Shown here in pieces: positions 4,275-46,500 of a stretch of 46,500 nt of DNA. The stretch is from a virus (taxonomy: Duplodnaviria; Heunggongvirae; Uroviricota; Caudoviricetes). The notes beneath the pieces were generated by a model. It did no database searches. It was not told the origin of the DNA and was given only the letters and a program-made list of their open reading frames with translations. The stretch is from IMG/VR virus record IMGVR_UViG_2718218452_000013, one strand, 5' to 3'. The first letter of the stretch is position 1; every line of letters starts with the position of its first letter. The translations under genes were made by a program, and so were the position numbers.

Positions 4275-4299
4275 TAAAAAAGGCGCCATTTCTGGCGCC
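4275..4299 (-). terminator. rho-independent terminator between J and lom
   Basis: minus-strand hairpin ggcgcc-agaaat-ggcgcc followed by a U-run, immediately upstream of the lom RBS. Confidence 0.5.
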
Positions 4300-4318
4300 C
4301 GTATATGGGTTATAAAAT

Positions 4319-11317: not shown

Positions 11318-19015
<7,698 letters not shown>

Positions 19016-24731: not shown

Positions 24732-28412
<3,681 letters not shown>

Positions 28413-28438
<26 letters not shown>

Positions 28439-28958
28439 TCAGCAACCCCGGTATCAGTTCATCCAGCGCGGCTGCTTTGTTCATGGCTTTGATGATATCC
28501 CGTTTCAGGAAATCAACATGTCGGTTTTCCAGTTCCGGAAAACGCCGCTGCACCGACAGGGGGAGCCCGTCGAGAATACTGGCAATTTCACCTGCGATCC
28601 GCGACAACACGAAAGTACAGAATGCGGTTTCCACCACTTCAGCGGAGTCTCTGGCATTCTTCAGTTCCTGTGCGTCGGCCTGCGCACGCGTAAGTCGATG
28701 GCGTTCGTACTCAATAGTTCCTGGCTGGAGATCTGCCTCGCTGGCCTGCCGCAGTTCTTCAACCTCCCGGCGCAGCTTTTCGTTCTCAATTTCAGCATCC
28801 CTTTCGGCATACCATTTTATGACGGCGGCAGAGTCATAAAGCACCTCATTACCCTTGCCACCGCCTCGCAGAACGGGCATTCCCTGTTCCTGCCAGTTCT
28901 GAATGGTACGGATACTCGCACCGAAAATGTCAGCCAGCTGCTTTTTGTTGACTTCCAT
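28413..28958 (-). CDS. Nu1: terminase small subunit Nu1
   Basis: 181-aa ORF MEVNKKQLADIFGASIRTIQNWQEQGMPVLRGGGKGNEVLYDSAAVIKWYAERDAE..., recalled as matching lambda Nu1. Confidence 0.95.
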
Positions 28959-29048
28959 TGTTCATTCCACGGCCAAAAACAGAGAAAGGAAACGACAAAG
29001 GCCCAAAAGTTCGTTTTCAGCACCTGTCGTTTCCTTTCTTTTCAGGGG

Positions 29049-29200
29049 GTATTTTAAATAAAAACATTAAGTTACGACGAAGAAGAACGGAAACGCCTTA
29101 AACCGGAAAATTTTCATAAATAGCGAAAACCCGCGAGGTCGCCGCCCCGTAACCTGTCGGATCGCCGGAAAGGACCCGCAAAATGATAATAATTATCATC
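29049..29200 (-). other. cos: cos site (cosB-cosN-cosQ); cosN 12-nt cohesive end at 29136..29147
   Basis: plus-strand ...ccgcgaggtcgccgccccgtaacctgtcgg... is the reverse complement of the lambda cohesive-end junction CGACAGGTTACG|GGGCGGCGACCTCGCGGG; about 190 bp upstream of the Nu1 start. Confidence 0.85.
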
Positions 29201-29346
29201 TACATGTCACAACGTGCATCTACGCCATCAAACCACGTCAAATAATCAATTATGACGCAGGTATCGTATTAATTGATCCGCATCAACTTAACGTAAAAAC
29301 AACTTCAGACAATACAAATCAGCGACACTGAATACGGGGCAACCTC

Positions 29347-29541
29347 ATGTCAACGAAGAACAGAACCCGCAGAACAACAACCCGCAACATCCGCTTTCCT
29401 AACCAAATGATTGAACAAATTAACATCGCTCTTGATCAAAAAGGGTCCGGGAATTTCTCAGCCTGGGTCATTGAAGCCTGCCGTCGGAGGCTAACGTCAG
29501 AAAAGATAGCATATACATCAATTAAAAGTGATGAAGAATGA
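29347..29541 (+). CDS. small phage protein, DLP12 YlcI-like
   Basis: 64-aa ORF MSTKNRTRRTTTRNIRFPNQMIEQINIALDQKGSGNFSAWVIEACRRRL; position next to cos as in DLP12 and the lambda right end. Confidence 0.6.
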   Translation: MSTKNRTRRTTTRNIRFPNQMIEQINIALDQKGSGNFSAWVIEACRRRLTSEKIAYTSIKSDEE

Positions 29542-29705
29542 ACATCCCGCGTTCTTCCCTCCGAACAGGACGATATTGTAAATTCACTTAATTACGAGGG
29601 CATTGCAGTAATTGAGTTGCAGTTTTACCACTTTCCTGACAGTGACAGACTGCGTGTTGGCTCTGTCACAGGTTAAGTAGTTTGAATGATTAGCAGTTAT
29701 GGTGA

Positions 29706-29912
29706 TCAGTCAACCACCAGGGAATAATCCTTCATATTATTATCGTGCTTCACCAACGCTGCCTCAATTGCCCTGAATGCTTCCAGAGACACCTTATGTT
29801 CTATACATGCAATTACAACATCAGGGTAACTCATAGAAATGGTGCTATTAAGCATATTTTTTACACGAATCAGATCCACGGAGGGATCATCAGCAGATTG
29901 TTCTTTATTCAT
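29706..29912 (-). CDS. small phage protein, DLP12 YbcW-like
   Basis: 68-aa [43 protein letters not shown]. Confidence 0.6.
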
Positions 29913-30197
29913 TTTGTCGCTCCATGCGCTTGCTCTTCATCTAGCGGTTAAAATATTACTTCAAATCTTTCTGTATGAAGATTTGAGCACGTTGGCCTTA
30001 CATACATCTGTCGGTTGTATTTCCCTCCAGAATGCCAGCAGGACCGCACTTTGTTACACAACCAATACTATTAATTGAAAACATTCCTAATATTTGACAT
30101 AAATCATCAACAAAACACAAAGAGGTCAGACCAGATTGAAACGATAAAAACGATAATGCAAACTACGCGCCCTCGTATCACATGGAAGGTTTTACCA

Positions 30198-30608
30198 ATG
30201 GCTCAGGTTGCCATTTTTAAAGAAATATTCGATCAAGTGCGAAAAGATTTAAACTGTGAATTGTTTTATTCTGAACTAAAACGTCACAATGTCTCACATT
30301 ATATTTACTATCTAGCCACAGATAATATTCACATTGTGTTAGAAAACGATAACACTGTGTTAATAAAAGGACTTAAAAAGGTTGTAAATGTTAAATTCTC
30401 AAGAAATACGCATCTTATAGAAACGTCCTTTGATAGGTTGAAATCAAGAGAAATCACATTTCAGCAATACAGGGAAAATCTTGCTAAAGCAGGAGTTTTC
30501 CGATGGGTTACAAATATCCACGAACATAAAAGATATTACTATACCTTTGATAATTCATTACTATTTACTGAGAGCATTCAGAACACTACACAAATCTTTC
30601 CACGCTAA
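30198..30608 (+). CDS. DUF1398-family phage protein, YbcV-like
   Basis: ATG at 30198 ([43 protein letters not shown]...), 136 aa; synteny with bor. Confidence 0.65.
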
Positions 30609-30898
30609 ATCATAACGTCCGGTTTCTTCCGTGTCAGCACCGGGGCGTTGGCATAATGCAATACGTGTACGCGCTAAACCCTGTGTGCATCGTTTTTAAT
30701 TATTCCCGGACACTCCCGCAGAGAAGTTCCCCGTCAGGGCTGTGGACATAGTTAATCCGGGAATACAATGACGATTCATCGCACCTGACATACATTAATA
30801 AATATTAACAATATGAAATTTCAACTCATTGTTTAGGGTTTGTTTAATTTTCTACACATACGATTCTGCGAACTTCAAAAAGCATCGGGAATAACACC

Positions 30899-31192
30899 AT
30901 GAAAAAAATGCTACTCGCTACTGCGCTGGCCCTGCTTATTACAGGATGTGCTCAACAGACGTTTACTGTTCAAAACAAACAGACAGCAGTAGCACCAAAG
31001 GAAACCATCACCCATCATTTCTTCGTTTCTGGAATTGGGCAGAAGAAAACTGTCGATGCAGCCAAAATTTGTGGCGGCGCAGAAAATGTTGTTAAAACAG
31101 AAACCCAGCAAACATTCGTAAATGGATTGCTCGGTTTTATTACTTTAGGCATTTATACTCCGCTGGAAGCGCGTGTGTATTGCTCAAAATAA
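30899..31192 (+). CDS. bor: Bor lipoprotein (serum-resistance moron, Iss homolog)
   Basis: 97-aa ORF MKKMLLATALALLITGCAQQTFTVQNKQTAVAPKETITHHFFVSGIGQKKTVDAAKICGG... with lipobox LITGC; recalled as lambda Bor. Confidence 0.9.
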   Translation: MKKMLLATALALLITGCAQQTFTVQNKQTAVAPKETITHHFFVSGIGQKKTVDAAKICGGAENVVKTETQQTFVNGLLGFITLGIYTPLEARVYCSK

Positions 31193-31223
31193 TTGCATGA
31201 GTTGCCCATCGATATGGTCAGCT

Positions 31224-31685
31224 CTATCTGCACTGCTCATTAATATACTTCTGGGTTCCTTCCAGTTGTTTTTGCATAGTGATCAGCCTCTCTCTGAGGG
31301 TGAAATAATCCCGTTCAGCGGTGTCTGCCAGTCGGGGGGAGGCTGCATTATCCACGCCGGAGGCCGTGGTGGCTTCACGCACTGACTGACAGACTGCTTT
31401 GATGTGCAACCGACGACGACCAGCGGCAACATCATCACGCAGAGCATCATTTTCAGCTTTCGCATCAGCTAACTCCTTCGTGTATTTTGCATCGAGCGCA
31501 GCAACATCACGCTGACGCATCTGCATGTCAGTAATTGCCGCGTTCGCTAGCTTCAGTTCTCTGGCATTTTTGTCGCGCTGGGCTTTGTAGGCGATTGCGT
31601 TATCACGGTAATGATTGACCGCCCATGACAGGCTGACGATGATGCAGATAATCAGAGCGGATATAATCGCGGTTACTCTGCTCAC
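31224..31685 (-). CDS. Rz: i-spanin Rz
   Basis: GTG at 31685 overlapping the endolysin stop ([29 protein letters not shown]...), 153 aa with N-terminal TM segment and coiled coil; the ORF track starts 4 codons earlier at 31697. Confidence 0.8.
31283..31465 (-). CDS. Rz1: o-spanin Rz1 lipoprotein, embedded in the +1 frame of Rz
   Basis: 60-aa [55 protein letters not shown] with lipobox and Pro-rich body, nested wholly inside Rz. Confidence 0.8.
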
Positions 31686-32179
31686 TGTTGCCCCCACAAA
31701 CAGACTTCACGCTCAATCTCACGACGAGTCATCAGGCCTTTCCATTGCTTACCGCCAGCGTATGTCCAGCGACGCAGCTGATCACATGCGCCTTTGATAT
31801 CGCCCTGGTTTATTTTGCGAAGAAGCGTCGATGTTCTAAAATTGCCAGCACCCACATTGTAAACGAATGAGTAAAGAGCGCCGCGCGTTGTTTCCGGTAT
31901 ATCAACTTTGATATACGGGTTAATTTGTCTGGCGACAGTGGCAAGGTCTTTATTCAAGAGTGCTTTGCATTCTGCTTTGGTATACGTTTTACCGAGCATG
32001 ATGTCTTTTCCGGTGTGTCCGTGACATACAGTCCATACACCAACAATATCTTTGTATGGTATGTAGCTGACACCTTCCAGACCATCGTTACCACTTGGGC
32101 CAGTGATTAACACTGATGCTATAGCAATTGCTCCGCCACCAATAGCAGCAGCAACGGCTTTTCGTAATGATGGAGGCAT
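31682..32179 (-). CDS. R: SAR endolysin (phage 21 R21-type lysozyme)
   Basis: 165-aa [47 protein letters not shown]... with Gly/Ala-rich N-terminal signal-anchor-release segment. Confidence 0.85.
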
Positions 32180-32394
32180 TATTCACCTCTCGCAGCCTTG
32201 CGCTTATCTTCTTTAATCTTGAAATAAAGGTTTGTCAGGTACGTCAGCAGGCCAAATACCAGGCTACCCAGCACACCTATTGCTGCCCACTGTGAGGGAG
32301 TGACTTTATCGAGCAGCTGTAAAAACCAGTAACCGGCACTACCTGCTGAGGTGCCATAGGCGACTCCAGTTGTTAACTTATCCATGAATTTCAT
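32179..32394 (-). CDS. S: pinholin (phage 21 S21-type class II holin) with dual-start motif
   Basis: ATG at 32394 gives [71 protein letters not shown] (71 aa); MKFM dual start; stop overlaps the endolysin start. Confidence 0.85.
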
Positions 32395-32982
32395 AACCCC
32401 ACCTCGCAGACAAAGCGGGTGTAAATTGAGGGAATACAACGTATCGCAAAAAAGCAGAAACGTAACTGACTCCGAGTCAGTGAATAACTCAGGTATTGAG
32501 TTATCAGCTAATATCGAGACTCAAAAAATGGAAAAACCAGCTCGACGGCGGGTTTAAGCTGTGTGACGAAGTAACCACTCTTAACAGCATAACCAATTTT
32601 TTACGTACGTAAACCACTGAATGATATTTATGAGAATGCTACCGAGTGTTCAAAACATCACCACAAATACATAAGAAAACCTCAACAAATAACCAATAAA
32701 TAATTTCCAGTGTTATTTTTAGCCGGTTTAAATTAAACAGACGAATTATAGAACCACCATAAATAACAGCCATTAATATAAATTAGCTAATAGATTTATT
32801 TTTGTTCAAATAAGAGCCATAAATAGGTTTCGATAGAAAAAGTTCAGATAAAAATAGAGATCTACTTCACAAATTAAATGAGAAACTAAAACTTACATCT
32901 TGAAATAATCACATTGATTAGATGAATATTTATCGCGCAGTGACATCATTTTTTAATAATAGTTCAAAAAAAAGGGCTCACG

Positions 32983-34080
32983 ATGAAAAAATTAACAGTG
33001 GCAATTTCTGCTGTAGCTGCATCAGTACTGATGGCGATGTCTGCTCAGGCAGCTGAAATTTATAATAAAGACAGTAACAAGCTGGATCTGTACGGGAAAG
33101 TTAATGCCAAGCACTACTTTTCCTCTAACGATGCAGATGATGGTGATACTACTTATGTTCGTCTGGGCTTCAAAGGCGAAACCCAAATCAACGATCAGCT
33201 GACTGGTTTCGGTCAGTGGGAATATGAATTCAAAGGCAACCGCGCTGAATCTCAAGGTTCCTCCAAAGACAAAACCCGTCTTGCATTTGCAGGCCTGAAA
33301 TTCGGTGACTACGGCTCAATCGATTACGGCCGTAACTACGGTGTAGCATACGACATCGGTGCGTGGACTGACGTTCTGCCAGAATTCGGTGGCGATACCT
33401 GGACCCAAACAGATGTGTTCATGACTGGTCGCACCACTGGTGTTGCAACCTATCGTAACAACGACTTCTTTGGTCTGGTTGATGGTCTGAACTTTGCTGC
33501 TCAGTACCAAGGCAAAAACGATCGTAGCGATTTCGATAACTACACCGAAGGTAACGGTGATGGCTTCGGTTTCTCTGCTACCTATGAATACGAAGGATTC
33601 GGTATCGGTGCAACTTATGCGAAATCTGATCGTACCGACACTCAAGTTAATGCAGGGAAAGTTCTTCCTGAAGTATTTGCTTCCGGTAAAAATGCAGAAG
33701 TTTGGGCCGCAGGTCTGAAATATGACGCTAACAACATTTACCTGGCCACTACCTATTCTGAAACCCAGAATATGACTGTATTTGCTGATCACTTCGTTGC
33801 TAATAAAGCTCAAAACTTCGAAGCTGTTGCACAATATCAGTTCGATTTCGGTCTGCGTCCGTCCGTTGCTTACCTGCAATCTAAAGGTAAGGATCTTGGA
33901 GTATGGGGCGATCAGGACTTAGTCAAATATGTTGATGTAGGTGCAACCTATTACTTCAACAAAAATATGTCTACTTTCGTTGATTACAAAATCAACCTGC
34001 TTGACAAAAATGACTTCACTAAAGCACTCGGTGTAAGCACTGATGACATCGTTGCTGTAGGTCTGGTTTACCAGTTCTAA
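32983..34080 (+). CDS. nmpC: outer membrane general porin (NmpC/OmpD/OmpC family), phage moron
   Basis: 365-aa [50 protein letters not shown]... ending ...VGLVYQF; sits between Q and the lysis cassette in the opposite orientation, as in DLP12. Confidence 0.85.
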
Positions 34081-34245
34081 TCTGATTACGAAAAAGATAT
34101 GTTGCGGGAGGCGTTGCCTCCCCAACATATAAGTGGCTCCCTCAAGCCACTTCCTTTAGGAGCACAACCTTGCTTCTAACTATATAAACCTTCTGTTATA
34201 TATTACCCTTTATTTTTGGGGGCGTTGCAACGCCCCATTTTTAAT
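34081..34245 (+). ncRNA. candidate IpeX-like sRNA / porin 3' UTR ending in a terminator
   Basis: two GC-rich hairpins (gggaggcgttgcctcccc; gggggcgttgcaacgcccc followed by a T-run) directly downstream of the porin; by analogy to IpeX at the DLP12 nmpC 3' end. Not verified. Confidence 0.3.
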
Positions 34246-34269
34246 AACTTTCAGTAAACAATTGGCATA

Positions 34270-34653
34270 TTAATTAGAGTTATTAACAACGATATCCATC
34301 TCTAACCGGATATCTAATGCCATTAACATCCCTTCAATTATGCCCTCAGCCTTCTGTAACCTTTTCCCGATATAACCATCAGAGCAGCAATGCTTACCTG
34401 CCAGTGACATGAATGTCATACCGACTACATAATAATCTACTAATAAATCGTGCAAATCGCTGTTGTTCTTTTTCAGACGGGCCATGCACCCGCAAATGAT
34501 CATCGCGTCATCGTCACAACATTGCGGGCGAGATTTTACTTTTGAAGGAATTAATCCCTTAAAACCGGCGGCAATGGACGACCAGGTCACATCTTCATGA
34601 TTATTAGCCGCCCACGCTCCCCAACGTTCAAGAACCATCTGAATATCACGCAT
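34270..34653 (-). CDS. Q: late-gene antitermination protein Q (DLP12 QuuD-like)
   Basis: ATG at 34653 gives [33 protein letters not shown]... (127 aa), Cys-rich, immediately upstream of the late region. Confidence 0.8.
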
Positions 34654-34670
34654 TAACTTTCTCCACAAAA

Positions 34671-35666
34671 TCAGGCCAGCACACCAATCGCCAGTGCGCG
34701 ATCGATAAAACGAAATATCAGCTCCAGCTGGGAGCCATACTTCTCTTCAAATGCCACGGTATCCGCATGCAGTTCGTCGTGGTGTTTTCTGCACAAAGGC
34801 AGCACAAAAAGGTCATGCGCTTTTGTACCCATTCCACCCTGACCATGGCCTATCAGATGATGCGGATCATCAGCTGGCTTTCCACAACATGCACACGGCT
34901 GTGTCTTAACCCAGCGCGTGTACTTTTCATTAACCCAGCGGCGACGTTTTGGGCGTAACATAAAAGACTCCGGCGACTCCGGATCCACTTTCAGCGCCAG
35001 CACCTTTTTCGCCTTATCCTGGATGATGCTGGTGGCAGGAACCGAAGGCACAAGGTCACTTTCCCGGGTAACAGACGGCACAACAGGCTTCGGTAATCTC
35101 AGTGCCTTACGGGCTGCACTTTCCGGTAAGGCATCCGCCAGATCATTACGAATCAGCCACCAGCACAGTTCCGGCATTGTCACAACGTGACTGTCATCAA
35201 AACCGAGATCCCGACGCACAACAGACAACACCCAGCGGGCACAGTTATCCGTTGCCATTGATTCCAGCCGTTCCGTGAACTGATCGCGCAGCTGGTTATC
35301 GCAGTGCCAGCACAGACGGATTGCACCCGGAGCGTGTCGCATTGTGGTCATGTTCTCGCTGTGCCAGTCGGAATGAGGCCACTGGCAGCCTTTTTCACGA
35401 AGTAACCAGCTTTCAAGACATTCCACGCCACCAGCACGACGGATCACTGCCTCATTGCGGAACACGGCCCGAACGGCAGGATCATCCGCCAGCGGTTGTG
35501 ATGCCGCCGGAACGGCACCACTGGCGAAAGATGAATAACGCTCCGGCTCAGGCTCCAGCAGGACACGCCCCTGCATAAACAGGGGCATCAGCTCTGAACC
35601 TGGCCTGAACAATACGATCCCCATACGCGGGGCAATTTCAGGGGTCAGTAGTGCTCTCACGGTCAC
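34671..35666 (-). CDS. DUF968-family protein (YdfU-like) with C-terminal HNH-like Cys/His motif
   Basis: 331-aa ORF; C-terminal ...[43 protein letters not shown]. Confidence 0.7.
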
Positions 35667-35667
35667 C

Positions 35668-36477
35668 TCAATGAACGGTATCGAGCAGCTTTAACAGCTC
35701 AGGGAATCGGGATTCGAAGAAATGCGGCTGCGTCTCGCGCGGATTTGCGGGACTGGTGATGTTCTTGCCGAACATGCAACCTTTCGCTGTCAGCGACCAG
35801 AATTTTTTGATGTTGTTAATCGCTGTACGGCTGTATCGTTCGCGCTGCTCGACGATCCCCAGTTTCACCATCTGGTGATATGCCTGATTAGCCGTCAGGC
35901 GTATACCATACTGTTTCAGCAGTGCACTCAGTGACAGTGTCGGGCGACTTGAGCCATCGTGTGCATCAGCAGGAGCATCAATGGCATAGCGCGGTGCCAG
36001 ATTCGGTAAGCCAACAGCCTCCTGGAGTTTCTGACAGGCACCAAGCACTGAAGAGTTAGACAGGTTTAACTCCCGGCGCATAAAGTCCAGCAGGATCACG
36101 CCAGCCTGCATCTTGTCAGCAGCCTGTCCGGATAATTTTTCCGGTGCGCTGGTTACCATATCGAAAGTACGGATCACCTTCAGATGGAATGACGGGCTGA
36201 TCCACATTGCATAGGCATACACCAGTTCCTTGCAGACATACGTTCCCCGTTCATTTCCCCCATGAATCACACTCACCGGGTCAACACCCAAATTCTGGGT
36301 GTTGGTCAATTCATGAACAAGCTCAACAGTTTGTTGGCTGGAAAGAAACTTTCCCGGCTCCTTGGTTCTGGCATTTGCACCAGATGCTACTGCTGCGCGA
36401 TGCAGATCGTTCAGGCTGTAACGCCCATAAGCATCACGACGAACTTCAATACCATCAATGACCATCAGATTATTCAT
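35668..36477 (-). CDS. KilA-N domain protein (antirepressor-like)
   Basis: ATG at 36477 (MNNLMVIDGIEVRRDAYGRYSLNDLHRAAVASG...), KilA-N-like N-terminus. Confidence 0.7.
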   Translation of the reverse strand: MNNLMVIDGIEVRRDAYGRYSLNDLHRAAVASGANARTKEPGKFLSSQQTVELVHELTNTQNLGVDPVSVIHGGNERGTYVCKELVYAYAMWISPSFHLKVIRTFDMVTSAPEKLSGQAADKMQAGVILLDFMRRELNLSNSSVLGACQKLQEAVGLPNLAPRYAIDAPADAHDGSSRPTLSLSALLKQYGIRLTANQAYHQMVKLGIVEQRERYSRTAINNIKKFWSLTAKGCMFGKNITSPANPRETQPHFFESRFPELLKLLDTVH

Positions 36478-36496
36478 ACTTCGTTTCTCCTCTTGA

Positions 36497-36886
36497 TCAG
36501 GCGGCTGCACCCGCCGTTTTCTCGTACTTACTGATAGTGATCTCGACCTTCCCTTTCGGGATAACCGGTCCCCACTCCACCAGCATTCTTTTCACCTGAC
36601 TGTCGTCTTCCCACACACCCGCATGGGTCAGGGCGTCAAACAGCGCCTTGTTATAGTTGTCCAGATCGCGGATCCGGTTATCCGGAGGAAACAACACGAT
36701 CTCCACTGAAGCAGGTGCCGACGTTGGTTTCGGCAGACGACGTAACTGCTCAACTATTGCTGCGCACGCCGCGCTCTGGAATTTGCGCCCCGCTGCGCTT
36801 ATCAGACTCTTACCAGCAAACGCCCCTTTGTTGGGGTGTCGCCAGTACGTGTTCACGCTGGGCGGAAAAGGCAGGATCAGCTTCAT
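36497..36886 (-). CDS. rusA: Holliday junction resolvase RusA
   Basis: 129-aa ORF MKLILPFPPSVNTYWRHPNKGAFAGKSLISAAGRKFQ...DLDNYNKALFDALTHAGVWEDDSQV. Confidence 0.85.
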   Translation of the reverse strand: MKLILPFPPSVNTYWRHPNKGAFAGKSLISAAGRKFQSAACAAIVEQLRRLPKPTSAPASVEIVLFPPDNRIRDLDNYNKALFDALTHAGVWEDDSQVKRMLVEWGPVIPKGKVEITISKYEKTAGAAA

Positions 36887-37209
36887 ACTTTCAGGCCCCT
36901 CTCATGTAACCAGTGGGCTGCACGCAGCCTGGCGTTTTCCTCACCGGCAAGCAGTGCGCGGATAATCCCGACCGCCTCGCTGTCGTCGTCCTTCACCGCG
37001 GTATGAAGAGTTATCCCCCGGGCCACGCCACGCTTTATCGTGATGACGCCTTTTTTCTCCAGTGCGCGAAGATGCTCCACCGCTGCATTCACCGAACGGT
37101 ATCCCAGCATGGTTGCCACCTCCTGATTGGTTGGCGGAAAGCCACGTTCTTGCTGGTAAGAAATCAGCATATCCAGCACCTGCTGCTGGCATTGAGTTAA
37201 CGTCGTCAT
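36883..37209 (-). CDS. LexA N-terminal DNA-binding domain protein (no peptidase domain)
   Basis: 108-aa ORF MTTLTQCQQQVLDMLISYQQERGFPPTNQEVATMLGYRSVNAAVEHLRALEKKGVI... Confidence 0.6.
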   Translation of the reverse strand: MTTLTQCQQQVLDMLISYQQERGFPPTNQEVATMLGYRSVNAAVEHLRALEKKGVITIKRGVARGITLHTAVKDDDSEAVGIIRALLAGEENARLRAAHWLHERGLKV

Positions 37210-37859
37210 GCCGCCATCTCCCTGACCAGTTTTTCCGCCTGCTGGCGAACCTGCGCCAGAAAGGCCTCACCACATGCCTCAAGTTCATCGCGCCCGATGT
37301 AGCTGATTGCCGGTCCCTTCCAGGTCTTGTCGAAAACAGCAATAGCACCAGCGAAGAAAGCGCCTGTCGGCACCTGCTTCTCATCCTTCGGGATAAACCA
37401 GGCAGGCAGTTCAAAACCAATACGCCCGCGAATAAAAGCAATATGGTCCGCATCTTCCGGCCACCACACTTCGCTGGTGGCAGCTTTGATCAGGAAAACA
37501 TAGCGCCCGCCCTTATCACGCATGGCACTGGCATGTTTCATGATGTAACGCATGCCGGTGATGTATTGCCCCTCATGCTGACTGGCGCGGCTGTATGGGG
37601 GATTACCAAAGGCAGCACCTTTAAGCTCCGCAAGACGTTCTGACCAGTCATGCGCCAGCGCGTTGTCTTCCGCCGTGTAATACGCGGCACATTTGGCGTT
37701 ATCACCGTCAGTAAACAGATCCAGAACAAACGGGCCAAACAGGGTGTTAATTCCCCAGAAAATGTTGTCCGGTGTGCGCCACTGATCGCCCACTTCCTTC
37801 AGTTCATGGGCTGGTTTGTTTCGCAACTCCACCAGCGCCTGGCAATATTTATTACTCAT
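37206..37859 (-). CDS. phage DNA N6-adenine methyltransferase (Dam-like)
   Basis: ATG at 37859 (MSNKYCQALVELRNK...), NPPY catalytic motif (AFGNPPYSRA); start overlaps the upstream stop (TAATG). Confidence 0.8.
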   Translation of the reverse strand: MSNKYCQALVELRNKPAHELKEVGDQWRTPDNIFWGINTLFGPFVLDLFTDGDNAKCAAYYTAEDNALAHDWSERLAELKGAAFGNPPYSRASQHEGQYITGMRYIMKHASAMRDKGGRYVFLIKAATSEVWWPEDADHIAFIRGRIGFELPAWFIPKDEKQVPTGAFFAGAIAVFDKTWKGPAISYIGRDELEACGEAFLAQVRQQAEKLVREMAA

Positions 37860-38353
37860 TAAGCCCCCACGTAATTCCCTGACAGATACCACTCTTCACC
37901 CGATGCAGCGCGCTTGCTGCTTTTCCGTAAGCACCGCTCACGACGCGCCAGAAAATTGTTTCGTTCTGGCTGGGAGTGGCTTTCACGGAATGCCGCCATC
38001 CACACCGTTGCAGCACGACGGTATAAGCCCCTGGACTCCAGTTCTTCAGCCTGGCGGGTCAGGCACAAAATCACCCGTGGATCGTTAGTGCCGACATAGA
38101 AATTGCGCACAGGTCTGGTTTCTCGAACTGGTTGTGGTTCCGGTTCCTGCGCTCTCTCAGTCAGGCGCGGGAAATGTCTGCGTGTATCTCCTTCACAACG
38201 GTGAGCCACACGCCCACTCTGACGTAACTTGCTTGCTGACTGCAGAACGCGCTGCCGTGAGTAACCTGCAAAAGCATCCGCAATGTCTCCGGAAGTACAT
38301 CCCGGATGGGCTTCAATGAATTTCTGAACTTCATTCAAAAGACTCATGATCAC
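37859..38353 (-). CDS. putative transcriptional regulator with PerC-like C-terminal region
   Basis: 164-aa ORF; C-terminal ...AEELESRGLYRRAATVWMAAFRESHSQPERNNFLARRERCL resembles the PerC/Pch motif; assignment by motif only. Confidence 0.45.
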   Translation of the reverse strand: MIMSLLNEVQKFIEAHPGCTSGDIADAFAGYSRQRVLQSASKLRQSGRVAHRCEGDTRRHFPRLTERAQEPEPQPVRETRPVRNFYVGTNDPRVILCLTRQAEELESRGLYRRAATVWMAAFRESHSQPERNNFLARRERCLRKSSKRAASGEEWYLSGNYVGA

Positions 38354-39265
38354 CCCCTGAATCCTGCCGGGATCTGGCTGTAGTCCACGTTGTCGTAACT
38401 GGATTTGAAGTACGGGTCTTCGCGTTTTTCGGTGTACGTGCTGACGGACGGTGATAAGCGCAGGGAAAGCTCATCCCATTTTTCCCGCAACTTCGACGGG
38501 CTGAGCACGTTACGGCACCAGAACGGATCGCGGCTGACGCGGCTGTACATCTCGCAGATTTGTTTGTGAGTACGACCATCCTGCACACACATCAGGCGAA
38601 TTTCGTTTGCCCAGGCTGTCCAGTTCGGTTCTTTGGGACGAACCACCTCGCCGTCACATTCGGCGGCTTGCTCGTACAGGGCGATGATTTTTTTCCAGAG
38701 CCACTGTGCGCAGGTCAAATCATCCTGCGTTCCCCACTGGCGCTTTTTAGGGCTGAATACAACCGCATCAGGATGGCGAGTTAAAAAATCCTGTTCATCC
38801 GTCTGCGTGTCCGGTTGCGAAGCGTCCGGACGAGAAGGTTTTTTATCTGACGGATCATGTTTTGATTTTACTGACGGATCCCCGCCAGATTCTGACGGGT
38901 GAAAACCCGCTTTTTTGCCAGATTTCGACGCATCAAATTTTGACGGGTCAGATTTTGATGCGTCAGATTTTGACGGGTCAGAATCTGACAGTTGAGAAAA
39001 TGCCGCTGCCTGGAAGCTTCGCAACGTTAAGCTGATAAACATTCGACGCATTGCGGTTACCCTGGCGACGCGCCTTACGCGTTAACCAGCCTTCTGCTTC
39101 CAGCCGTGCGATAGCCGTCCTGACGGTACTCATCCCCGCGCCAATCTGACAGGCAATGGTTTCAATTGATGGCCAGCACACACCTTCGTCATTACTGAAA
39201 TCAGCCAGGCGGGCCATAATTGCCACGCTGGATAATTCATGCCTGATGCAGCGCAACCATCCCAT
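38350..39265 (-). pseudogene. replication initiator O-like protein, split between two frames near the iteron array
   Basis: N-terminal HTH ORF (38978..39265; ...RLEAEGWLTRKARRQGNRNASNVYQLNV) and C-terminal ORF (38350..39051) overlap in different frames; the iteron-encoded SKSD repeats fall at the junction; plus-strand A4 run at 38997..39000 is the likely frameshift site. Confidence 0.6.
38840..38992. repeat. replication origin iterons (about 6 direct repeats of a 16-17-bp unit, consensus tcAGATTTTGACGgg) inside the O-like gene
   Basis: direct repeats ccagattctgacggg / cagatttcgacgcatc / caaattttgacgggtc / cagattttgatgcgtc / cagattttgacgggtc / cagaatctgacag. Confidence 0.75.
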
Positions 39266-39300
39266 ACATAGCCGGTTAATTTAGTGCTCATGACCGACCT

Positions 39301-39639
39301 CTATTTCCCTGAATTTACGACGAAACTGTTCGAGCGGGCTGAAGCACTCATGCTCATAGCCTTCGCGGAGGTAGATAACTCGTTGTGTTTCCGGCTCCCA
39401 ACGAATGACTCTGACGGGTACTCCGTAGTGATCTTTGAACCAGCGGTTAACTTGTCGCAAAGGACTGTCTCCTTCTGCCGGTTAAAATCACCCACAGCCC
39501 ACTCTGCAAAGCTGTGGGTTACAATTACCCTGCCACCTGGTACATTAACTGCATAGCAATACTCCACCTTCGCTTTTCCACCCGGTACAGGAAGCGCAAT
39601 CAGTTGCGAGCGACGGTAGTGTGTTGTTAAACTGTTCAT
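39301..39639 (-). CDS. hypothetical phage protein (e14 YmfM-like by size and position)
   Basis: 112-aa ORF whose start overlaps the upstream gene stop; an antisense + ORF (39284..39556) also exists; strand chosen by synteny. Confidence 0.45.
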
Positions 39640-40187
39640 GCGTTAGTTTCTCCACAGTCACGACACGCCACGGCGCCCGGAGCTGCACACTCGCGGGCGT
39701 CATTACTTTCTGAAATGCAAAAAATTTTGTAGACCAGTGCTGCATGCTCCTGCAGCTTCGAAATTGAGAGGTACAGCTCGTCGTTAATTGCTGTCTTCTC
39801 ATGCGGTTCCACTACACCGTCTTCAATTGCTGAACGAATCTGTTTTGAATAACTGCCGATCTGTTCAATGACCTCCAGCAGGCGTTGGTTGATATCGGCG
39901 TTGTCCACATCCTCGACATCAGGAAGAGACACAAAGACGCCATTTGCAGACTGCGCCACAGCGTCAGCAATGAAGTGAGTTCCACCAGCACGTTGCAAAA
40001 TCATTGCCCATCCCAGCGGGAAAATCTGATCGCCATCGGCACGAAGGCGGTTAAATAATGCGTTCTCTGTTACATCCAGCCAGTCAGCAGCTTCAGCGTA
40101 CCCCCCCGGCAACGCTGCGATAGTTTTTCTGACAGCTTTCACGTACCACTCAGGCTGTTTTTCTACTTTCCAGTGATGCTTACCCAC
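39636..40187 (-). CDS. CII-like phage regulatory protein (YmfL/CP76 family)
   Basis: 183-aa ORF immediately downstream of the cro-like gene; family assignment from memory, moderate. Confidence 0.5.
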
Positions 40188-40440
40188 GGTTCACCTCCTG
40201 TTCCTGTGGTTTAAACCCATTCTGGTTTTGGCTAGATTGAAAACGTGCCGGATAAAGAATCTGCATTTCGCTGACTTCACCCTTAAAAAAATTGGCTAAA
40301 CGTTCTGCAAGCTCGATAGATGGAATCTGCTCCAGCCTCTCAATACGACTCAACGTCGCTGGATTGACTTGAACACCCGCAGCAACATGCTGCAAAGTGA
40401 AACCATGCGCCTTACGCACATTTCGTAATGGTGATTGCAT
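40180..40440 (-). CDS. cro: Cro-like HTH repressor
   Basis: 86-aa ORF with HTH (GFTLQHVAAGVQVNPATLSRIERLEQIPSIELAERLANFF), divergent from the cI-like gene. Confidence 0.75.
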   Translation of the reverse strand: MQSPLRNVRKAHGFTLQHVAAGVQVNPATLSRIERLEQIPSIELAERLANFFKGEVSEMQILYPARFQSSQNQNGFKPQEQEVNRG

Positions 40441-40537
40441 ACGTCCTCCAAATATTGCGCGTTATGCATGTTATTTCACGCAATTATTTTGCGCAAGTTG
40501 ATTTGCTTATCACGCAATAAAGAAATGTAATAAACGC
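40441..40537. promoter_or_regulatory. OR-like operator/promoter region between the cro-like and cI-like genes
   Basis: repeated operator-like half-sites (tatttcacgcaatt, ttatcacgcaataa, attgcgcgtta, ttttgcgcaagt) in the 97-bp divergent intergenic region. Confidence 0.6.
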
Positions 40538-41230
40538 ATGAACATAGGAAACCGAGTCAGACAACTTCGCCAAGCGAAGAACATGAAAATCGCCGATCTC
40601 GCTGAAGCGATAGGAGTAGATGCGGCGAACATCTCGCGCTTAGAAACGGGTAAGCAAAAACAATTTACCGAACAAACACTGAGTAATATTGCCAAGAGCT
40701 TAGGTGTTGATATTGCTGATCTCTTTACCTCTGCCCACAAAAGTAATACTGTATATAAAAACAGTAATAATGAGGATGTTGCGCAGGTGAAGGATGTGTT
40801 CCGTATTGAAATGCTGGATATCAGTGCCAGTGCGGGAAATGGCCTTATCCAGGGCGGTGATGTCATTGATGTGATTCATGCCATCGAATACAGAACTGAT
40901 AATGCTGTATCAATGTTCGGCGGACGACCAGCCAATCACATCAAAGTTATCAACGTTCGTGGGGACAGTATGTGTCCAACCATTGAGCCAGGAGATCTCA
41001 TCTTCGTTGATGTCAGCATCAATCAGTTTGATGGTGATGGTATATATGTCTTTGGTTTTGATGACAAAATATACGTTAAAAGACTTCAAATGATTCCTGA
41101 CAAACTGCTGGTGATTTCTGATAACCAGATTTACCGTGAATGGGGAATTACTAGCGAAAACGAACACCGATTCATGGTCTTTGGAAAGGTCTTAATCAGT
41201 CAGTCGCAAACCCTTAAGAGACATAATTAA
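40538..41230 (+). CDS. cI: CI-like prophage repressor (HTH-XRE + S24 LexA-like peptidase domain)
   Basis: 230-aa ORF MNIGNRVRQLRQAKNMKIADLAEAIGVDAANISRLETGKQ...; C-terminal peptidase-like region (VRGDSMCPTIEPGDLIFVD). Confidence 0.85.
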   Translation: MNIGNRVRQLRQAKNMKIADLAEAIGVDAANISRLETGKQKQFTEQTLSNIAKSLGVDIADLFTSAHKSNTVYKNSNNEDVAQVKDVFRIEMLDISASAGNGLIQGGDVIDVIHAIEYRTDNAVSMFGGRPANHIKVINVRGDSMCPTIEPGDLIFVDVSINQFDGDGIYVFGFDDKIYVKRLQMIPDKLLVISDNQIYREWGITSENEHRFMVFGKVLISQSQTLKRHN

Positions 41231-41250
41231 CCTCAATATCCCATCCATCG

Positions 41251-41272
41251 GCCACCGAAAGGTGGCTTTTTA
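41251..41272 (+). terminator. rho-independent terminator after the cI-like gene
   Basis: gccacc-gaaa-ggtggc followed by ttttta. Confidence 0.7.
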
Positions 41273-41280
41273 TTACCTAT

Positions 41281-41340
41281 AAATTTGCATATCACGCAAA
41301 TATCACTTGCATATCTCGCAATTTAATTTTATCTTTTGTT
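41281..41340 (+). promoter_or_regulatory. OL/pL-like operator-promoter region
   Basis: operator half-sites matching OR (atatcacgcaaat, atatctcgcaatt) overlapping a candidate -35 TTGCAT / -10 TATCTT promoter. Confidence 0.5.
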
Positions 41341-41486
41341 CCAGACCAACTACAGGATTACAACAAAATCTGGTTGCAACACGGTGCATGTGTCGTAAGC
41401 AGTCAGTAAATGTCAAAAACGAACAGGCAGGACGCCCACGAAGTAGCCGCCTGGGGCATATGAAGTCCAGGATGATTCGTTAGCAA

Positions 41487-41511
41487 CAAAAAAGCGCCCT
41501 ACAGGACGCTT
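41487..41511 (-). terminator. candidate rho-independent terminator of the 41550..42041 gene
   Basis: minus-strand hairpin (one mismatch) followed by a U-run, about 40 nt after the stop. Confidence 0.4.
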
Positions 41512-41549
41512 AGCTCTTTAACAATCTGGATATCCACAACAGTAGTAAT

Positions 41550-42041
41550 CTACAGATTGCCGTTAAGTTTTCTGGACAACTCCTCAATGGATGGAGGCGA
41601 TACGTAATCCGGATTTTTATTCATCAGAAACTTATTTTCACAGTGGAGGCACCTGCTTTTATGAAAAAGCTCATCTTCGCTAACCGGGAATGGTTGAAGT
41701 ATCGATACTATCTTTTGTCCAAAACATTTTGGGCAAAGATGCATGGTTATGCTGCCACCGTTCACGATTACCTCCTTCGAGTATACAAAAGTACCCGACT
41801 CAAGTTGGTTAAGGATATAGCCTTCCGTCTGAGCCTCAAAGTTTTCGAATTCTGCAATTTTAGCTTTGAGAGAAGCATTTATTTCTTGATAAGAGCCCAC
41901 CAGTTCAACGAGAGACACGCATTCGCGCTGAATAGACGCAAGCTTTGAGTTCAGCTCACCAATAGCCGCATTTACTTCAGCTTGAGTTTTTGCCTCGTTC
42001 ATTAGTTTTGCAATCTGGGCTGTTTCACGAATAGCCGTCAT
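41550..42041 (-). CDS. hypothetical protein: N-terminal coiled-coil, C-terminal CxxC...CxxC zinc-ribbon
   Basis: ATG at 42041 (MTAIRETAQIAKLMNEAKTQAEVNAAIGELNSKLASIQRECVSL...HLCPKCFGQK...CLHCENKF), 164 aa; the upstream part of the 259-aa track ORF is Arg-rich low complexity and probably untranslated. Confidence 0.55.
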   Translation of the reverse strand: MTAIRETAQIAKLMNEAKTQAEVNAAIGELNSKLASIQRECVSLVELVGSYQEINASLKAKIAEFENFEAQTEGYILNQLESGTFVYSKEVIVNGGSITMHLCPKCFGQKIVSILQPFPVSEDELFHKSRCLHCENKFLMNKNPDYVSPPSIEELSRKLNGNL

Positions 42042-42352
42042 TGCTGCCGTTAATTCAGCGATCACATTGAATACTCTTATTGTTGTTGGGGATATCCAGA
42101 TTAACCGAATCCTTGTTGTTGGGGAATAACCAGGTCCACCTCGCCTGATGTGGCTAAAAGCAGGCACATAACAGCTAAGTATTTTCAACCAGAGAGAATC
42201 CTTAGCGTTGTGGTGAATGCGGCTCAGCGCACGCGGGTTAAGGTTGAGGCTGACAGTCGACCTTCTGTGGATACCCACCCGCCTGGTGTGCAACCTTCGC
42301 CAGGCACCGGGAGGCACCCGGCACCACAACTTTATGCTGTGTGTAGTCCTGG

Positions 42353-42398
42353 CGGTACCAGTTTGTACCCTTGCTTCCGGCTGGTACCGTCCTTTTTT
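42353..42398 (+). terminator. rho-independent terminator (tL1-like) on the + strand
   Basis: cggtaccag ... ctggtaccg stem followed by tcctttttt. Confidence 0.55.
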
Positions 42399-42535
42399 GC
42401 AAAACAGAGAAGAGCATCACCGGACGACGGGCTCATAACCCAATCCATCCGGGCGGCTGCCACCGCAGGTGTTCTTCTCTGTTTTGTGGAGAAACCAACC
42501 GACCTTGCAGGGTCGATATGATGAGGAGCAGCAAA

Positions 42536-42898
42536 ATGGCTAGCGAACGCAGTACTGATGTGCAGGCATTTATCGGGGAGCTGGACGGCGGCGTATTTGA
42601 AACCAAAATCGGCGCAGTTCTCAGTGAGGTCGCTTCCGGTGTGATGAACACGAAAACCAAAGGGAAGGTCTCACTCAATCTGGAAATCGAACCGTTTGAT
42701 GAGAACCGTGTGAAAATCAAACACAAACTCTCATATGTTCGCCCAACTAACCGCGGGAAAATTTCCGAAGAAGACACCACCGAAACGCCGATGTATGTCA
42801 ATCGCGGTGGTCGCCTGACTATTCTGCAGGAAGACCAGGGACAATTACTGACTCTTGCCGGTGAACCTGACGGAAAACTCCGCGCAGCAGGTCGTTAA
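42536..42898 (+). CDS. phage protein, CPS-53 YfdP-like
   Basis: ATG at 42536 preceded by GAGGAG RBS (MASERSTDVQAFIGELDGGVFETKIG...), 120 aa. Confidence 0.6.
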   Translation: MASERSTDVQAFIGELDGGVFETKIGAVLSEVASGVMNTKTKGKVSLNLEIEPFDENRVKIKHKLSYVRPTNRGKISEEDTTETPMYVNRGGRLTILQEDQGQLLTLAGEPDGKLRAAGR

Positions 42899-42963
42899 TA
42901 TCGTTCGTAATAAACTGATTATTTATCTCATCACTGAATATCTTTATATAGTGAGGACTTATT

Positions 42964-43788
42964 ATGTCTCAGAACTTAGACGCAACCGCAATTAATCAAA
43001 TCCATGCCCTTATTTCTGCTCAGGGTGTTAATGAAATTATCAGTAAGATTGGTGCCGATGCTGTGGCATTGCCTGAGAATTTCCGCATTCATGATCTGGA
43101 AAAATTTAATTTAAATCGCTTCCGTTTCCGTGGTGCACTTTCCACTGCCAGCATCGATGATTTTACCCGTTATTCTAAAGATCTTGCAGATGAAGGCACC
43201 CGCTGCTTTATCGATGCCGATAATATGCGTGCCGTCAGTGTGCTTAACCTGGGTACTATTGATGAGCCAGGTCACGCAGATAACACTGCCACTCTCAAAC
43301 TGAAAAAGACAGCACCGTTCTCTGCTCTGTTGTCTGTTAACGGCGAGCGTAACTCCCAGAAGTCACTGGCAGAATGGATCGAAGACTGGGCCGACTACCT
43401 TGTGGGCTTTGATGCTAATGGTGACGCCATTCAAGCAACAAAAGCGGCTGCGGCAGTCCGTAAAATCACGATTGAAGCAAACCAGACCGCTGATTTTGAA
43501 GATAATGACTTCAGCGGCAAACGCTCCCTGATGGAGTCTGTCGAAGCGAAGACCAAAGACATTATGCCAGTGGCATTTGAATTTAAATGCGTTCCGTTTG
43601 AAGGTCTGAAAGAACGTCCGTTTAAATTACGCCTCAGCATTATCACTGGCGATCGTCCTGTACTGGTTCTGCGCATTATTCAGCTGGAAGCGGTGCAGGA
43701 AGAAATGGCTAACGAATTTCGTGATCTGCTTGTTGAGAAATTCAAAGACAGCAAAGTAGAAACCTTTATTGGTACTTTCACCGCCTGA
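42964..43788 (+). CDS. DUF2303-family protein, YfdQ-like
   Basis: 274-aa [51 protein letters not shown]. Confidence 0.65.
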
Positions 43789-43915
43789 TTTCATTACTGC
43801 AAATGCCCCTGCGGGGGCATTTATGGAAACGTAATTAACTCAATAATCACCGGATGGTGAGGGCTTCCTTTTACCAGAATTCAGCGCGGTGCAGTGCATA
43901 TACGTGGAGAACAAA

Positions 43916-44452
43916 ATGTCATTTATTAAAACTTTTTCCGGGAAGCATTTTTATTATGACAAGATAAATAAAGACGACATCGATATTAACGATATCGCGG
44001 TTTCCCTTTCAAATATCTGTCGCTTTGCCGGTCATCTTTCGCACTTCTACAGCGTCGCCCAACATGCGGTTCTTTGCAGCCAGCTGGTGCCGCAGGAATT
44101 TGCTTTTGAAGCGTTAATGCATGATGCAACAGAAGCGTATTGCCAGGACATTCCCGCACCACTGAAACGCCTTCTTCCTGACTATAAACGGATGGAAGAA
44201 AAAATAGACGCCGTAATCCGTGAGAAATACGGGTTACCCCCAGTTATGAGTACACCCGTGAAATATGCCGATCTCATCATGCTGGCAACCGAACGCCGCG
44301 ATCTCGGGCTTGATGATGGCTCTTTCTGGCCTGTACTGGAAGGCATCCCGGCAACAGAAATGTTCAACGTGATTCCACTGGCACCGGGTCATGCCTACGG
44401 GATGTTTATGGAACGTTTTAACGATTTATCGGAGTTACGCAAATGCGCATGA
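43916..44452 (+). CDS. HD-domain phosphohydrolase, YfdR-like (5'-deoxynucleotidase family)
   Basis: ATG at 43916 with GGAGA RBS (MSFIKTFSGKHFYYDKINKDDIDINDIAVSLSNICRFAGHLSHFYSVAQHAVL...MHDATEAYCQDIP), HD motifs; 178 aa. Confidence 0.7.
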   Translation: MSFIKTFSGKHFYYDKINKDDIDINDIAVSLSNICRFAGHLSHFYSVAQHAVLCSQLVPQEFAFEALMHDATEAYCQDIPAPLKRLLPDYKRMEEKIDAVIREKYGLPPVMSTPVKYADLIMLATERRDLGLDDGSFWPVLEGIPATEMFNVIPLAPGHAYGMFMERFNDLSELRKCA

Positions 44453-44805
44453 ATGTTTTCGAAATGGAAGGGTTTCTTCGCGGGAAATGTGTACCGCGAG
44501 ATCTGAAAGTGAACGAAACAAATGCTGAGTACCTGTTACGTAAATTCGACGCGCTTGAAGCTAAATGTGCGGCACTGGAAAACAAAATAATACCAGTGTC
44601 AGCTGAACTGCCACCAGCAAATGAAAGTGTTCTGTTATTTGATGCTAATGGAGAAGGCTGGCTGATTGGCTGGCGTTCTCTCTGGTACACCTGGGGACAA
44701 AAAGAAACCGGAGAATGGCAGTGGACATTTCAGGTCGGGGACCTTGAAAACGTCAATATCACTCACTGGGCAGTAATGCCAAAAGCACCGGAGGCTGGAG
44801 CATAA
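44443..44805 (+). CDS. DUF551-family protein, YfdS-like
   Basis: 120-aa ORF MRMNVFEMEGFLRGKCVPRDLKVNETNAEYLLRKF...WTFQVGDLENVNITHWAVMPKAP. Confidence 0.6.
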   Translation: MRMNVFEMEGFLRGKCVPRDLKVNETNAEYLLRKFDALEAKCAALENKIIPVSAELPPANESVLLFDANGEGWLIGWRSLWYTWGQKETGEWQWTFQVGDLENVNITHWAVMPKAPEAGA

Positions 44806-45110: not shown

Positions 45111-45481
45111 TGGAGCCATACAGCCTCACACTCGATGAGGCCTGTCATTTTCTCAAAATATCCAGACCGACTGCCATTAACTGGATACGCACAGGCCGCC
45201 TACAGGCAACACGTAAAGATCCAACCAAGCCAAAATCTCCTTACCTCACAACACGGCAAGCTTGCATTGCGGCGCTTCAGTCTCCGCTGCATACTGTCCA
45301 GGTGAGCGCGGGTGATGGCATAACAGAGGAAAGAAAATGTCACTCTTCCGCAGAAATGAAATATGGTATGCCTCGTATTCGCTCCCGGGCGGGAAACGAA
45401 TTAAGGAATCTCTTGGCACAAAGGACAAGCGGCAAGCTCAGGAGTTGCACGACAAGCGAAAAGCAGAACTCTGGCGAGTAG
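45110..45481 (+). CDS. xis: excisionase-like protein (e14 XisE-like N-terminus)
   Basis: ATG at 45110 ([37 protein letters not shown]...), HTH-like; the frame stays open 145 nt into int, so the 3' end is uncertain. Confidence 0.6.
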
Positions 45482-46500
45482 AAAAGCTAGGGGATTTACC
45501 TGATGTCACTTTTGAAGAGGCCTGCCTAAGATGGCTTGAGGAAAAAGCTGATAAAAAATCTCTCGATTCAGATAAAAGCCGGATTGAGTTCTGGCTTGAA
45601 CATTTTGAGGGTATAAGGCTTAAAGATATCTCGGAGGCAAAGATTTACTCTGCTGTAAGCAGAATGCATAACAGAAAGACGAAAGAAATATGGAAACAGA
45701 AAGTTCAGGCCGCCATCAGGAAAGGTAAAGAACCGCCTGTTTATGAACCAAAGCCAGTATCAACTCAGACAAAGGCAAAGCATCTTGCCATGATAAAGGC
45801 CATTCTCCGTGCTGCAGAACGCGACTGGAAGTGGCTGGAAAAAGCGCCTGTCATCAAGATACCAGCGGTCAGAAACAAGCGAGTCAGATGGCTGGAAAAG
45901 GAGGAAGCAAAACGCCTTATTGATGAGTGCCCCGAACCACTGAAATCTGTCGTCAAGTTTGCGCTGGCAACTGGTCTGAGAAAGTCGAACATCATAAATC
46001 TGGAATGGCAACAAATCGACATGCAGCGACGAGTTGCCTGGGTGAATCCAGAAGAGAGCAAATCAAACCGCGCCATTGGTGTGGCGCTGAACGATACCGC
46101 CTGTAAAGTGTTGCGTGATCAAATAGGCAAGCATCACAAATGGGTGTTTGTACATACCAAGGCGGCTAAGCGAGCAGATGGAACATCAACGCCTGCGGTC
46201 AGGAAGATGCGCATCGACAGCAAGACATCATGGCTATCAGCTTGTCGTCGTGCAGGAATTGAAGATTTCCGTTTCCATGACCTCAGACACACCTGGGCAA
46301 GCTGGCTGATCCAGTCAGGCGTCCCATTATCTGTGCTTCAGGAAATGGGCGGATGGGAGTCCATAGAAATGGTTCGTAGGTATGCTCACCTTGCGCCTAA
46401 TCATTTGACAGAGCATGCAAGGAAAATAGACGACATTTTTGGTGATAATGTCCCAAATATGTCCCACTGTGGAATTATGGAGGATATAAAGAAGGCGTAA
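45337..46500 (+). CDS. int: tyrosine site-specific integrase (e14 IntE-like)
   Basis: 387-aa ORF with C-terminal catalytic region ...[47 protein letters not shown]; stop codon at the window end. Confidence 0.9.

Follow-up and report, generated by a model that had tools for sequence, protein, structure and literature searches.

Porin, bor and lom: three outer-membrane moron cassettes of a lambdoid Escherichia coli prophage

The 46.5-kb stretch of DNA analysed here (IMG/VR virus record IMGVR_UViG_2718218452_000013, hereafter the window) is a lambdoid Escherichia coli prophage that extends from an integrase gene (45337–46500, +) to a tail-fibre assembly gene (98–673, −), with its late genes on the minus strand, and it very probably carries three separate, well-known moron cassettes that each encode an outer-membrane protein: a porin of the NmpC/Lc type, the lipoprotein Bor, and Lom, a beta-barrel protein of the Ail/Lom family. 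Descriptions of nmpC/lc, bor and lom go back to the 1970s to 1990s, and the finding is thus correct but already known, as all three are long-known accessory genes of lambda-like prophages. The term moron is used here as by Juhala et al. (2000), for an accessory cassette.

Three intact envelope genes at known moron sites

An earlier note on this DNA had placed the porin at 32983–34080 (+), bor at 30899–31192 (+) and lom at 3652–4251 (−), and the three open reading frames have exactly these ends and strands. The identities that it gave also stand, on Pfam matches to all three, the NCBIfam OmpC subfamily, and identity to NmpC and BorD, and neither a frameshift nor a premature stop is found in any of them. 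The porin of 365 residues covers the whole of the Pfam profile Porin_1 (PF00267; positions 1–337 of 337, 521 bits with a cut-off of 23.7) and passes the NCBIfam subfamily model “porin OmpC” (NF007841; 527.8, cut-off 484); its scores fall below the cut-offs of the NCBIfam equivalog models for PhoE and OmpF, and it is therefore neither PhoE nor OmpF. In PHROGs, its full-length match is phrog_410, a family without a name. The protein is 100% identical to that of the propagated phage PhiR29_1 (PV340556), and it shares 362 of 365 residues (99.2%) with the K-12 NmpC that is obtained by joining the two fragments of the gene without IS5. As only V59A, G149Q and T151A separate it from this rebuilt 365-residue NmpC, the gene in the window is an intact nmpC. 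In the curated record of phage 434B the equivalent gene is annotated as “porin NmpC; IS5 insertion after codon 346”, and in PhiR68_2 the porin gene is split. A 1.8-kb segment with the porin has matches in 3659 of the 5426 complete E. coli genomes searched, and each of the 25 matches listed is 100% identical.

The earlier note had proposed a comparison with the loops of NmpC, OmpD and OmpC; an alignment with the chromosomal porins shows a kept channel and variable segments that differ from OmpC. The identity to the chromosomal paralogues ranges from 62.5% for OmpF through 65.5% for OmpC and 66.2% for PhoE to 68.4% for OmpN. The signal peptide cleavage motif (...AQA↓AEIYNKD), the loop-3 motif PEFGGD and the C-terminal YQF with its terminal Phe are all kept, and so are, in the alignment with OmpC, OmpF, OmpN and PhoE, the basic (Lys/Arg) and acidic (Asp/Glu) channel residues, whose roles are established for OmpF. 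Changes in length cluster in a few variable segments in which the paralogues differ in length as well; relative to OmpC, one such segment lacks 11 residues and the one after it has an insertion of 5–6 residues. By the topology of OmpF and OmpC, we take the variable segments to be surface loops, and these two to be loops 4 and 5. Such a pattern would be expected where the channel is kept and the surface is changed. The closest solved structures are those of OmpC and OmpK36 (E about 1e-136 to 5e-136), and from this match the porin is predicted to form a trimeric 16-strand beta-barrel diffusion channel.

Bor matches the Pfam family Lambda_Bor (PF06291) with 105.6 bits at a cut-off of 25 and, over its full length, the PHROG “Bor-like outer membrane protein”. 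It has a lipobox, LITG↓C, at residues 13–17, and its 97 residues are identical to those of BorD of the K-12 prophage DLP12 and of the PhiR29_1 protein, and identical at 94 positions to those of lambda Bor. For Lom, the Pfam match to Ail_Lom (PF06316) spans residues 1–199 of 199 with 392.7 bits, the protein has a signal peptide and ends in GYKF with its terminal Phe, and the PHROG is named “Lom outer membrane protein”. This Lom is 96% identical to the Lom of PhiR29_1. Its type is the commonest one in long-tailed Stx, cdtI and mEp460-like phages: of 406 phage records, 150 have a Lom that is at least 90% identical to it.

All three genes lie at usual sites of morons, as the earlier note had stated: the porin between the late antiterminator gene Q and the holin gene, in the orientation opposite to both; bor just past Rz/Rz1, again opposite; and lom on the late strand, between the receptor-binding gene J (4319–7714, −) and stf. 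From Q onwards the window has the porin (opposite), the holin, the endolysin, Rz/Rz1, bor (opposite), ybcV, ybcW, ylcI and nu1, an order that matches quuD-nmpC-essD-rrrD-rzpD/rzoD-borD-ybcV-ybcW-ylcI-nohD of DLP12, and 28131–34688 aligns to DLP12 at 97.9% identity, the K-12 IS5 in nmpC aside. In lambda, no porin gene separates Q from S. Most relatives carry bor and lom.

Transcription signals of the cassettes

Each of the three genes has a terminator of its own (34219–34236 for the porin; Table 1 for the others). A deviant base composition is seen for the porin (44.4% GC, with 31.9% GC upstream) and for bor (42.2%), in a window of 52.8% GC whose head–tail genes reach 56.7%. The AT-rich region that the earlier note had seen upstream of the porin is thus found, at 32440–32982, and its 200-bp windows go as low as 25.5% GC. 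Upstream of bor there is a promoter-like site that agrees with the consensus in 9 of 12 positions, and the 303 bp before the gene are identical to lambda at 301 positions, so that whatever drives bor in lambda lysogens has been retained.

The earlier note had missed that the porin transcript has a structured 3′ region. The spacer of 189 bp between the stop codons of the porin and Q is identical to the K-12 nmpC–quuD spacer at 184 positions, and the first 167 nt of its plus strand (34081–34247) comprise four hairpins plus an intrinsic terminator (the hairpin at 34219–34236 and a T-run), with a minimum free energy of −62.4 kcal/mol (z = −8.0 against shuffles). By the K-12 coordinates of the nmpC–quuD spacer, the small RNA (sRNA) IpeX presumably lies at 34081–34247. 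IpeX is 167 nt long and is reported to lower OmpC (PMC12197685), and for PA-2 a lowering of both OmpC and OmpF by IpeX is stated in PMC8065619, which refers for it to Schnaitman (1975) and Castillo-Keller (2006). No Rfam model matches this region at gathering thresholds. The prophage sRNA svsR (PMC12803456) was considered as a relative of the porin 3′ region and rejected, as svsR lies at the 3′ end of cI.

The same spacer holds, on the minus strand, a 15-bp bulged hairpin (34097–34130; fold z = −4.6), which would suit as the terminator of a short, Q-controlled leader of the pR′ type. If it is such a leader terminator, antiterminated late transcription crosses the porin gene in antisense on its way to the holin. 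A site next to Q, with this hairpin downstream, is one candidate for the late promoter. A late start near the 5′ end of the porin gene is hinted at by the DLP12 promoter fragment that is quoted as −121 to +650 (PMC7918800). Relaxed sigma-70 and sigma-E scans for a late promoter returned weak candidates only.

The following scheme can be proposed for the cassettes. The porin cassette, of the DLP12/PA-2 NmpC/Lc kind, would be transcribed from the AT-rich region in front of it up to its own terminator, convergent with late transcription, and its 3′ region, which matches the stretch that gives IpeX in DLP12, would be part of the transcript. A lysogen that expresses this cassette would gain a general porin with different surface loops and lose OmpC and OmpF, and the swap may change permeability and remove the receptors of porin-dependent phages. 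The bor gene, for a lambda Bor/BorD lipoprotein of the Iss family that is associated with serum resistance, keeps the lambda upstream region and has a terminator of its own. The lom gene, enclosed by two strong intrinsic terminators on the late strand, would have low expression in the lysogen and high expression late in infection; most likely it would mask a surface receptor (self-exclusion), and adhesion would be a by-product. The permeability, serum resistance and adhesion phenotypes that the earlier note had expected of the lysogen would be the textbook ones of these families, judged from homologues.

Expression, receptor masking and the rearranged tail region

The sequence of the window shows gene identity, intactness, synteny and transcription signals; for expression and phenotypes, the scheme draws on homologues in related prophages. 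In a lysogen of strain LF82, the NmpC of prophage Perceval is transcribed 10-fold over background, and the Bor of the same prophage is induced in DMEM (PMC9928086). In lambda lysogens, the few prophage genes that are expressed include both lom and bor (PMC7067206), and the serum resistance is that of the literature on lambda Bor as cited in PMC7067206 and PMC8065619. The classical role of Lom is adhesion (Vica Pacheco 1997, as cited in PMC9928086). Over-expressed lambda Lom, however, blocks lambda-vir and not T7, for which self-exclusion has been proposed, and its expression rises sharply late in infection according to ribosome profiling cited in the same work (bioRxiv 10.1101/2025.02.28.640651). 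The window Lom matches chain C of PDB entry 9wso (“Outer membrane protein lom”; E = 6.6e-49), and this entry holds both lambda Lom and the maltoporin LamB, the lambda receptor, which suggests that lambda Lom binds the receptor of its own phage. Together, the block of lambda-vir and the content of 9wso favour receptor masking over, or in addition to, adhesion as the role of Lom, and by analogy this would also hold for the Lom of the window.

One could go further and suppose that it is the phage, and not host virulence, that benefits from the cassettes: the porin and IpeX would replace OmpC and OmpF, Lom would mask a receptor, and related phages or the phage's own progeny would be kept from adsorbing to lysogens and infected cells. 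The lowering of OmpC and OmpF by IpeX (PMC8065619, PMC12197685), the effect of Lom on lambda-vir and the joint presence of maltoporin and Lom in 9wso all argue for this. So does the position of lom directly after the receptor-binding gene J on the late strand. At the same site, phages of the phi80/N15 type have cor, a blocker of FhuA. The idea is weakened in that the Lom type of this prophage is found together with J receptor-binding domains of at least three very different kinds; moreover, it overlaps the explanation by three moron cassettes rather than excluding it. We hold it as a serious possibility, but only tentatively.

Several observations weigh against the explanation by three moron cassettes that convert the lysogen. 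In the promoter prediction that the earlier note had called for upstream of the porin, no sigma-70 match was found on the plus strand at the threshold of the consensus scan; the same scan gave no promoter-like site for lom. Only about 25 bp lie between the terminator of J and the start codon of lom, and the GC content of lom (55.7%, against 56.6% for J) gives no compositional sign of a foreign origin. The intact nmpC of E. coli B is “quiescent” by the title of Prilipov et al. (1998), a work cited in PMC3333887, and an intact porin reading frame is therefore no proof of expression. For this particular phage, the benefit of a receptor swap is hypothetical. Finally, Lom and the receptor-binding end of J differ in how they are conserved: relative to PhiR29_1, Lom is 96% identical and the J receptor-binding domain (last 150 residues) only 37%, whereas relative to 2G7b the C-terminal 249 residues of J are 95% identical and Lom only 85%. 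Co-variation of Lom with the J receptor-binding domain was accordingly rejected in this clade.

Taken together, such points could mean that the genes are intact but silent passengers, with a porin promoter silenced, for example by H-NS, a lom that is read only in lytic growth, and no converted phenotype. The 25–32% GC of the porin upstream region, the consensus scan for porin and lom and the title on E. coli B are all in line with this, and K-12 tolerates an nmpC inactivated by IS5, just as PhiR68_2 has its split porin. Yet the LF82 and lambda data above speak for expression in lysogens, the porin reading frame is found at 100% identity in many genomes, and in the window it is intact although three tail genes are damaged. 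We therefore regard silent passengers as unlikely, and prefer three moron cassettes. The practical use of the result is mainly for annotation, as the strain has an intact prophage porin together with an IpeX-type 3′ region. Antibiotic uptake through porins and susceptibility to phages could be altered by it, and it is kept intact here while the tail genes of the prophage look damaged. As a discovery it has little weight, since the genes have long been described and the porin segment occurs in about two thirds of the complete E. coli genomes.

The apparent damage to the tail genes is of two kinds. The tape-measure gene H is interrupted at 11316–17331, where 6016 bp stand in place of 52 bp of H. 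The insert consists of 1.83 tandem copies of a 3291-bp unit that runs from nucleotide 373 of J to the end of J and across a spacer to codon 64 of lom, and the segments 11316–14040 and 14607–17331 are 100% identical. The unit derives from a different, foreign J/lom allele, with 94.7% identity to the resident J and 62% in the receptor-binding domain. All three junctions (17331/17332, 14606/14607 and 11315/11316) are in frame, which gives three fusion reading frames (Table 1), and both lom junctions share one breakpoint, directly after ...ACACTGGGGC. Searches for two of the junctions in 5,426 complete E. coli genomes, for two in the GTDB representative genomes and for one in IMG/VR found none of them; the H::J fusion protein equals WP_073519251.1, on a single contig of 5.35 Mb. 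A Chi site as the cause of the repeated lom breakpoint was dropped, as there is no canonical Chi near the junctions. The other kind of damage is small: relative to PhiR29_1, M has a 2-bp deletion (about 9996–10006) and stf a 1-bp deletion in an A-run (about 2898–2964), and each shifts the frame. The H insert could be a private rearrangement or an assembly error, and together with the two frameshifts it suggests either a tail-defective prophage or sequencing errors. With a correct assembly, a defect in the tail would be probable. Should the lesions be real, tails cannot be built although all three envelope genes have remained intact; should they stem from the assembly, nothing follows from them.

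Short open-reading-frame families of phages resemble parts of Lom: phrog_23544 (63 residues) corresponds to Lom residues 1–63 and phrog_21289 (56 residues) to residues 144–199, and PPompW prophages have a Lom fragment that spans about the first 58 residues. From phrog_23544 and the PPompW fragments it follows that lom 5′ ends truncated near codons 60–64 are also present in other phage genomes, near the breakpoint that occurs twice in the window. A speculative and very improbable extension would be that the site next to J holds a receptor-masking protein in general, and that lom and the receptor-binding end of J are exchanged together as a unit. The array in the tape-measure gene would then preserve one such exchange, and this Lom type would mask a receptor shared by several J variants.

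The surrounding prophage and its known relatives

Aside from the immunity region and the one large insert, the window is collinear with PhiR29_1 at 94–99% identity. The immunity region with the repressor and cro genes (40215–41415) does not align to PhiR29_1, while its flanks are 98–99% identical, and the cI and cro-like proteins of PhiR29_1 have no match anywhere in the window, which points to an immunity type that differs from that of PhiR29_1. Q is a distant match to structures of the phage 21 Q (E = 7e-8), and the lysis genes follow the order essD-rrrD-rzpD/rzoD of DLP12. Canonical Chi sites (GCTGGTGG) number 8, where about 2 would be expected from shuffles; all of them fall within 35028–44618, in the early/regulatory half, and none lies in the head, tail or lysis regions of the window. 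The Rfam model IS009 (RF02111) matches with 224 bits at 132–330 (−), inside the tail-fibre assembly gene.

Between bor and nu1 lie ylcI, ybcW and ybcV, in an arrangement as in DLP12 and lambda. For ybcV, a terminator-like site of its own is seen downstream, at 30665–30690. In the relatives Turner and PhiR68_2, no gene of the size of ybcV or ybcW is annotated at this position. The ybcV family is labelled “head protein” in PHROGs, which looks like a misannotation that was carried over. For the accessory proteins, PADLOC gave no defence-system match except one marginal one for YbcV.

Table 1. Coordinates of the cassettes, their signals and neighbouring features in the window
Feature	Position	Strand	Basis or remark
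Porin gene (NmpC/Lc type), 365 residues, intact	32983–34080	+	Pfam Porin_1, NCBIfam OmpC subfamily, identity to NmpC
AT-rich region upstream of the porin; presumed porin promoter/regulatory region, also the lysis-gene leader of the opposite strand	32440–32982	+	Composition; 97.9% identical to the DLP12 counterpart
Structured 3′ region of the porin transcript	34081–34247	+	Match to DLP12 spacer; fold; intrinsic terminator
Bulged 15-bp hairpin, then CTTTTTCG; candidate terminator of a short pR′-type transcript leaving Q	34097–34130	−	Sequence, fold
bor lipoprotein gene, 97 residues, intact	30899–31192	+	Pfam Lambda_Bor
bor upstream region	30609–30898	+	Promoter-like site CTGACA-16-AACAAT at 30785–30812, 9/12 consensus
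Terminator-like hairpin and T-run, 59 nt downstream of the bor stop, within the 3′ end of Rz (opposite strand)	31251–31265	+	
lom, Ail/Lom-family outer-membrane beta-barrel, 199 residues, intact	3652–4251	−	Pfam Ail_Lom
Intrinsic terminator between J and lom	4281–4300	−	GGGCGCCAGAAATGGCGCC, then T-run
Intrinsic terminator between lom and stf	3604–3625	−	AGCCCGCCGGTTCAGGCGGGCT, then T-run
Fusion reading frame H′::′J	14867–18607	−	In-frame junction
Fusion reading frame Lom(1–64)::′J	11576–14800	−	In-frame junction
Fusion reading frame Lom(1–64)::′H	10091–11509	−	In-frame junction
Truncated lom copy, codons 1–64, in frame to the C-terminal part of H	11318–11509	−	
Truncated lom copy, codons 1–64, in frame to J from about residue 125	14609–14800	−	
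Late antiterminator Q (QuuD type)	34270–34653	−	Pfam Phage_antitermQ; 100% identical to PhiR29_1 Q
Phage-21-type lysis cassette	31224–32394	−	Pfam Phage_holin_2_1, Phage_lysozyme, Phage_lysis, Rz1
Holin S	32179–32394	−	
Endolysin R	31682–32179	−	
Rz	31224–31685	−	
Rz1, embedded	31283–31465	−	
ybcV/DUF1398	30201–30608	+	Pfam DUF1398; 31.6% GC
ybcW	29706–29912	−	Same order as DLP12
ylcI (DUF3950)	29347–29541	+	Same order as DLP12

Among known systems, the nmpC of DLP12 is the closest to the porin cassette: its position between Q and the lysis genes and its orientation are those of the window, but the K-12 copy carries IS5 after codon 346, whereas the copy in the window is intact. The lc porin gene of phage PA-2 is likened to it by description, as the sequence compared directly is that of NmpC only. 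With the chromosomal OmpC, OmpF, PhoE and OmpN, the porin shares the 16-strand family, but its gene is borne by a prophage. Bor corresponds to lambda Bor and to BorD of DLP12, of the Iss family, in its site and orientation after Rz/Rz1, with no notable difference. Lambda Lom, of the Ail/OmpX/PagC family, likewise lies on the late strand between J and stf, but it is only 45% identical to the window Lom overall; the blocks that the two share are few and include nearly identical C-terminal beta-strands (27 residues), and the differences fall between these conserved blocks, presumably in loops.

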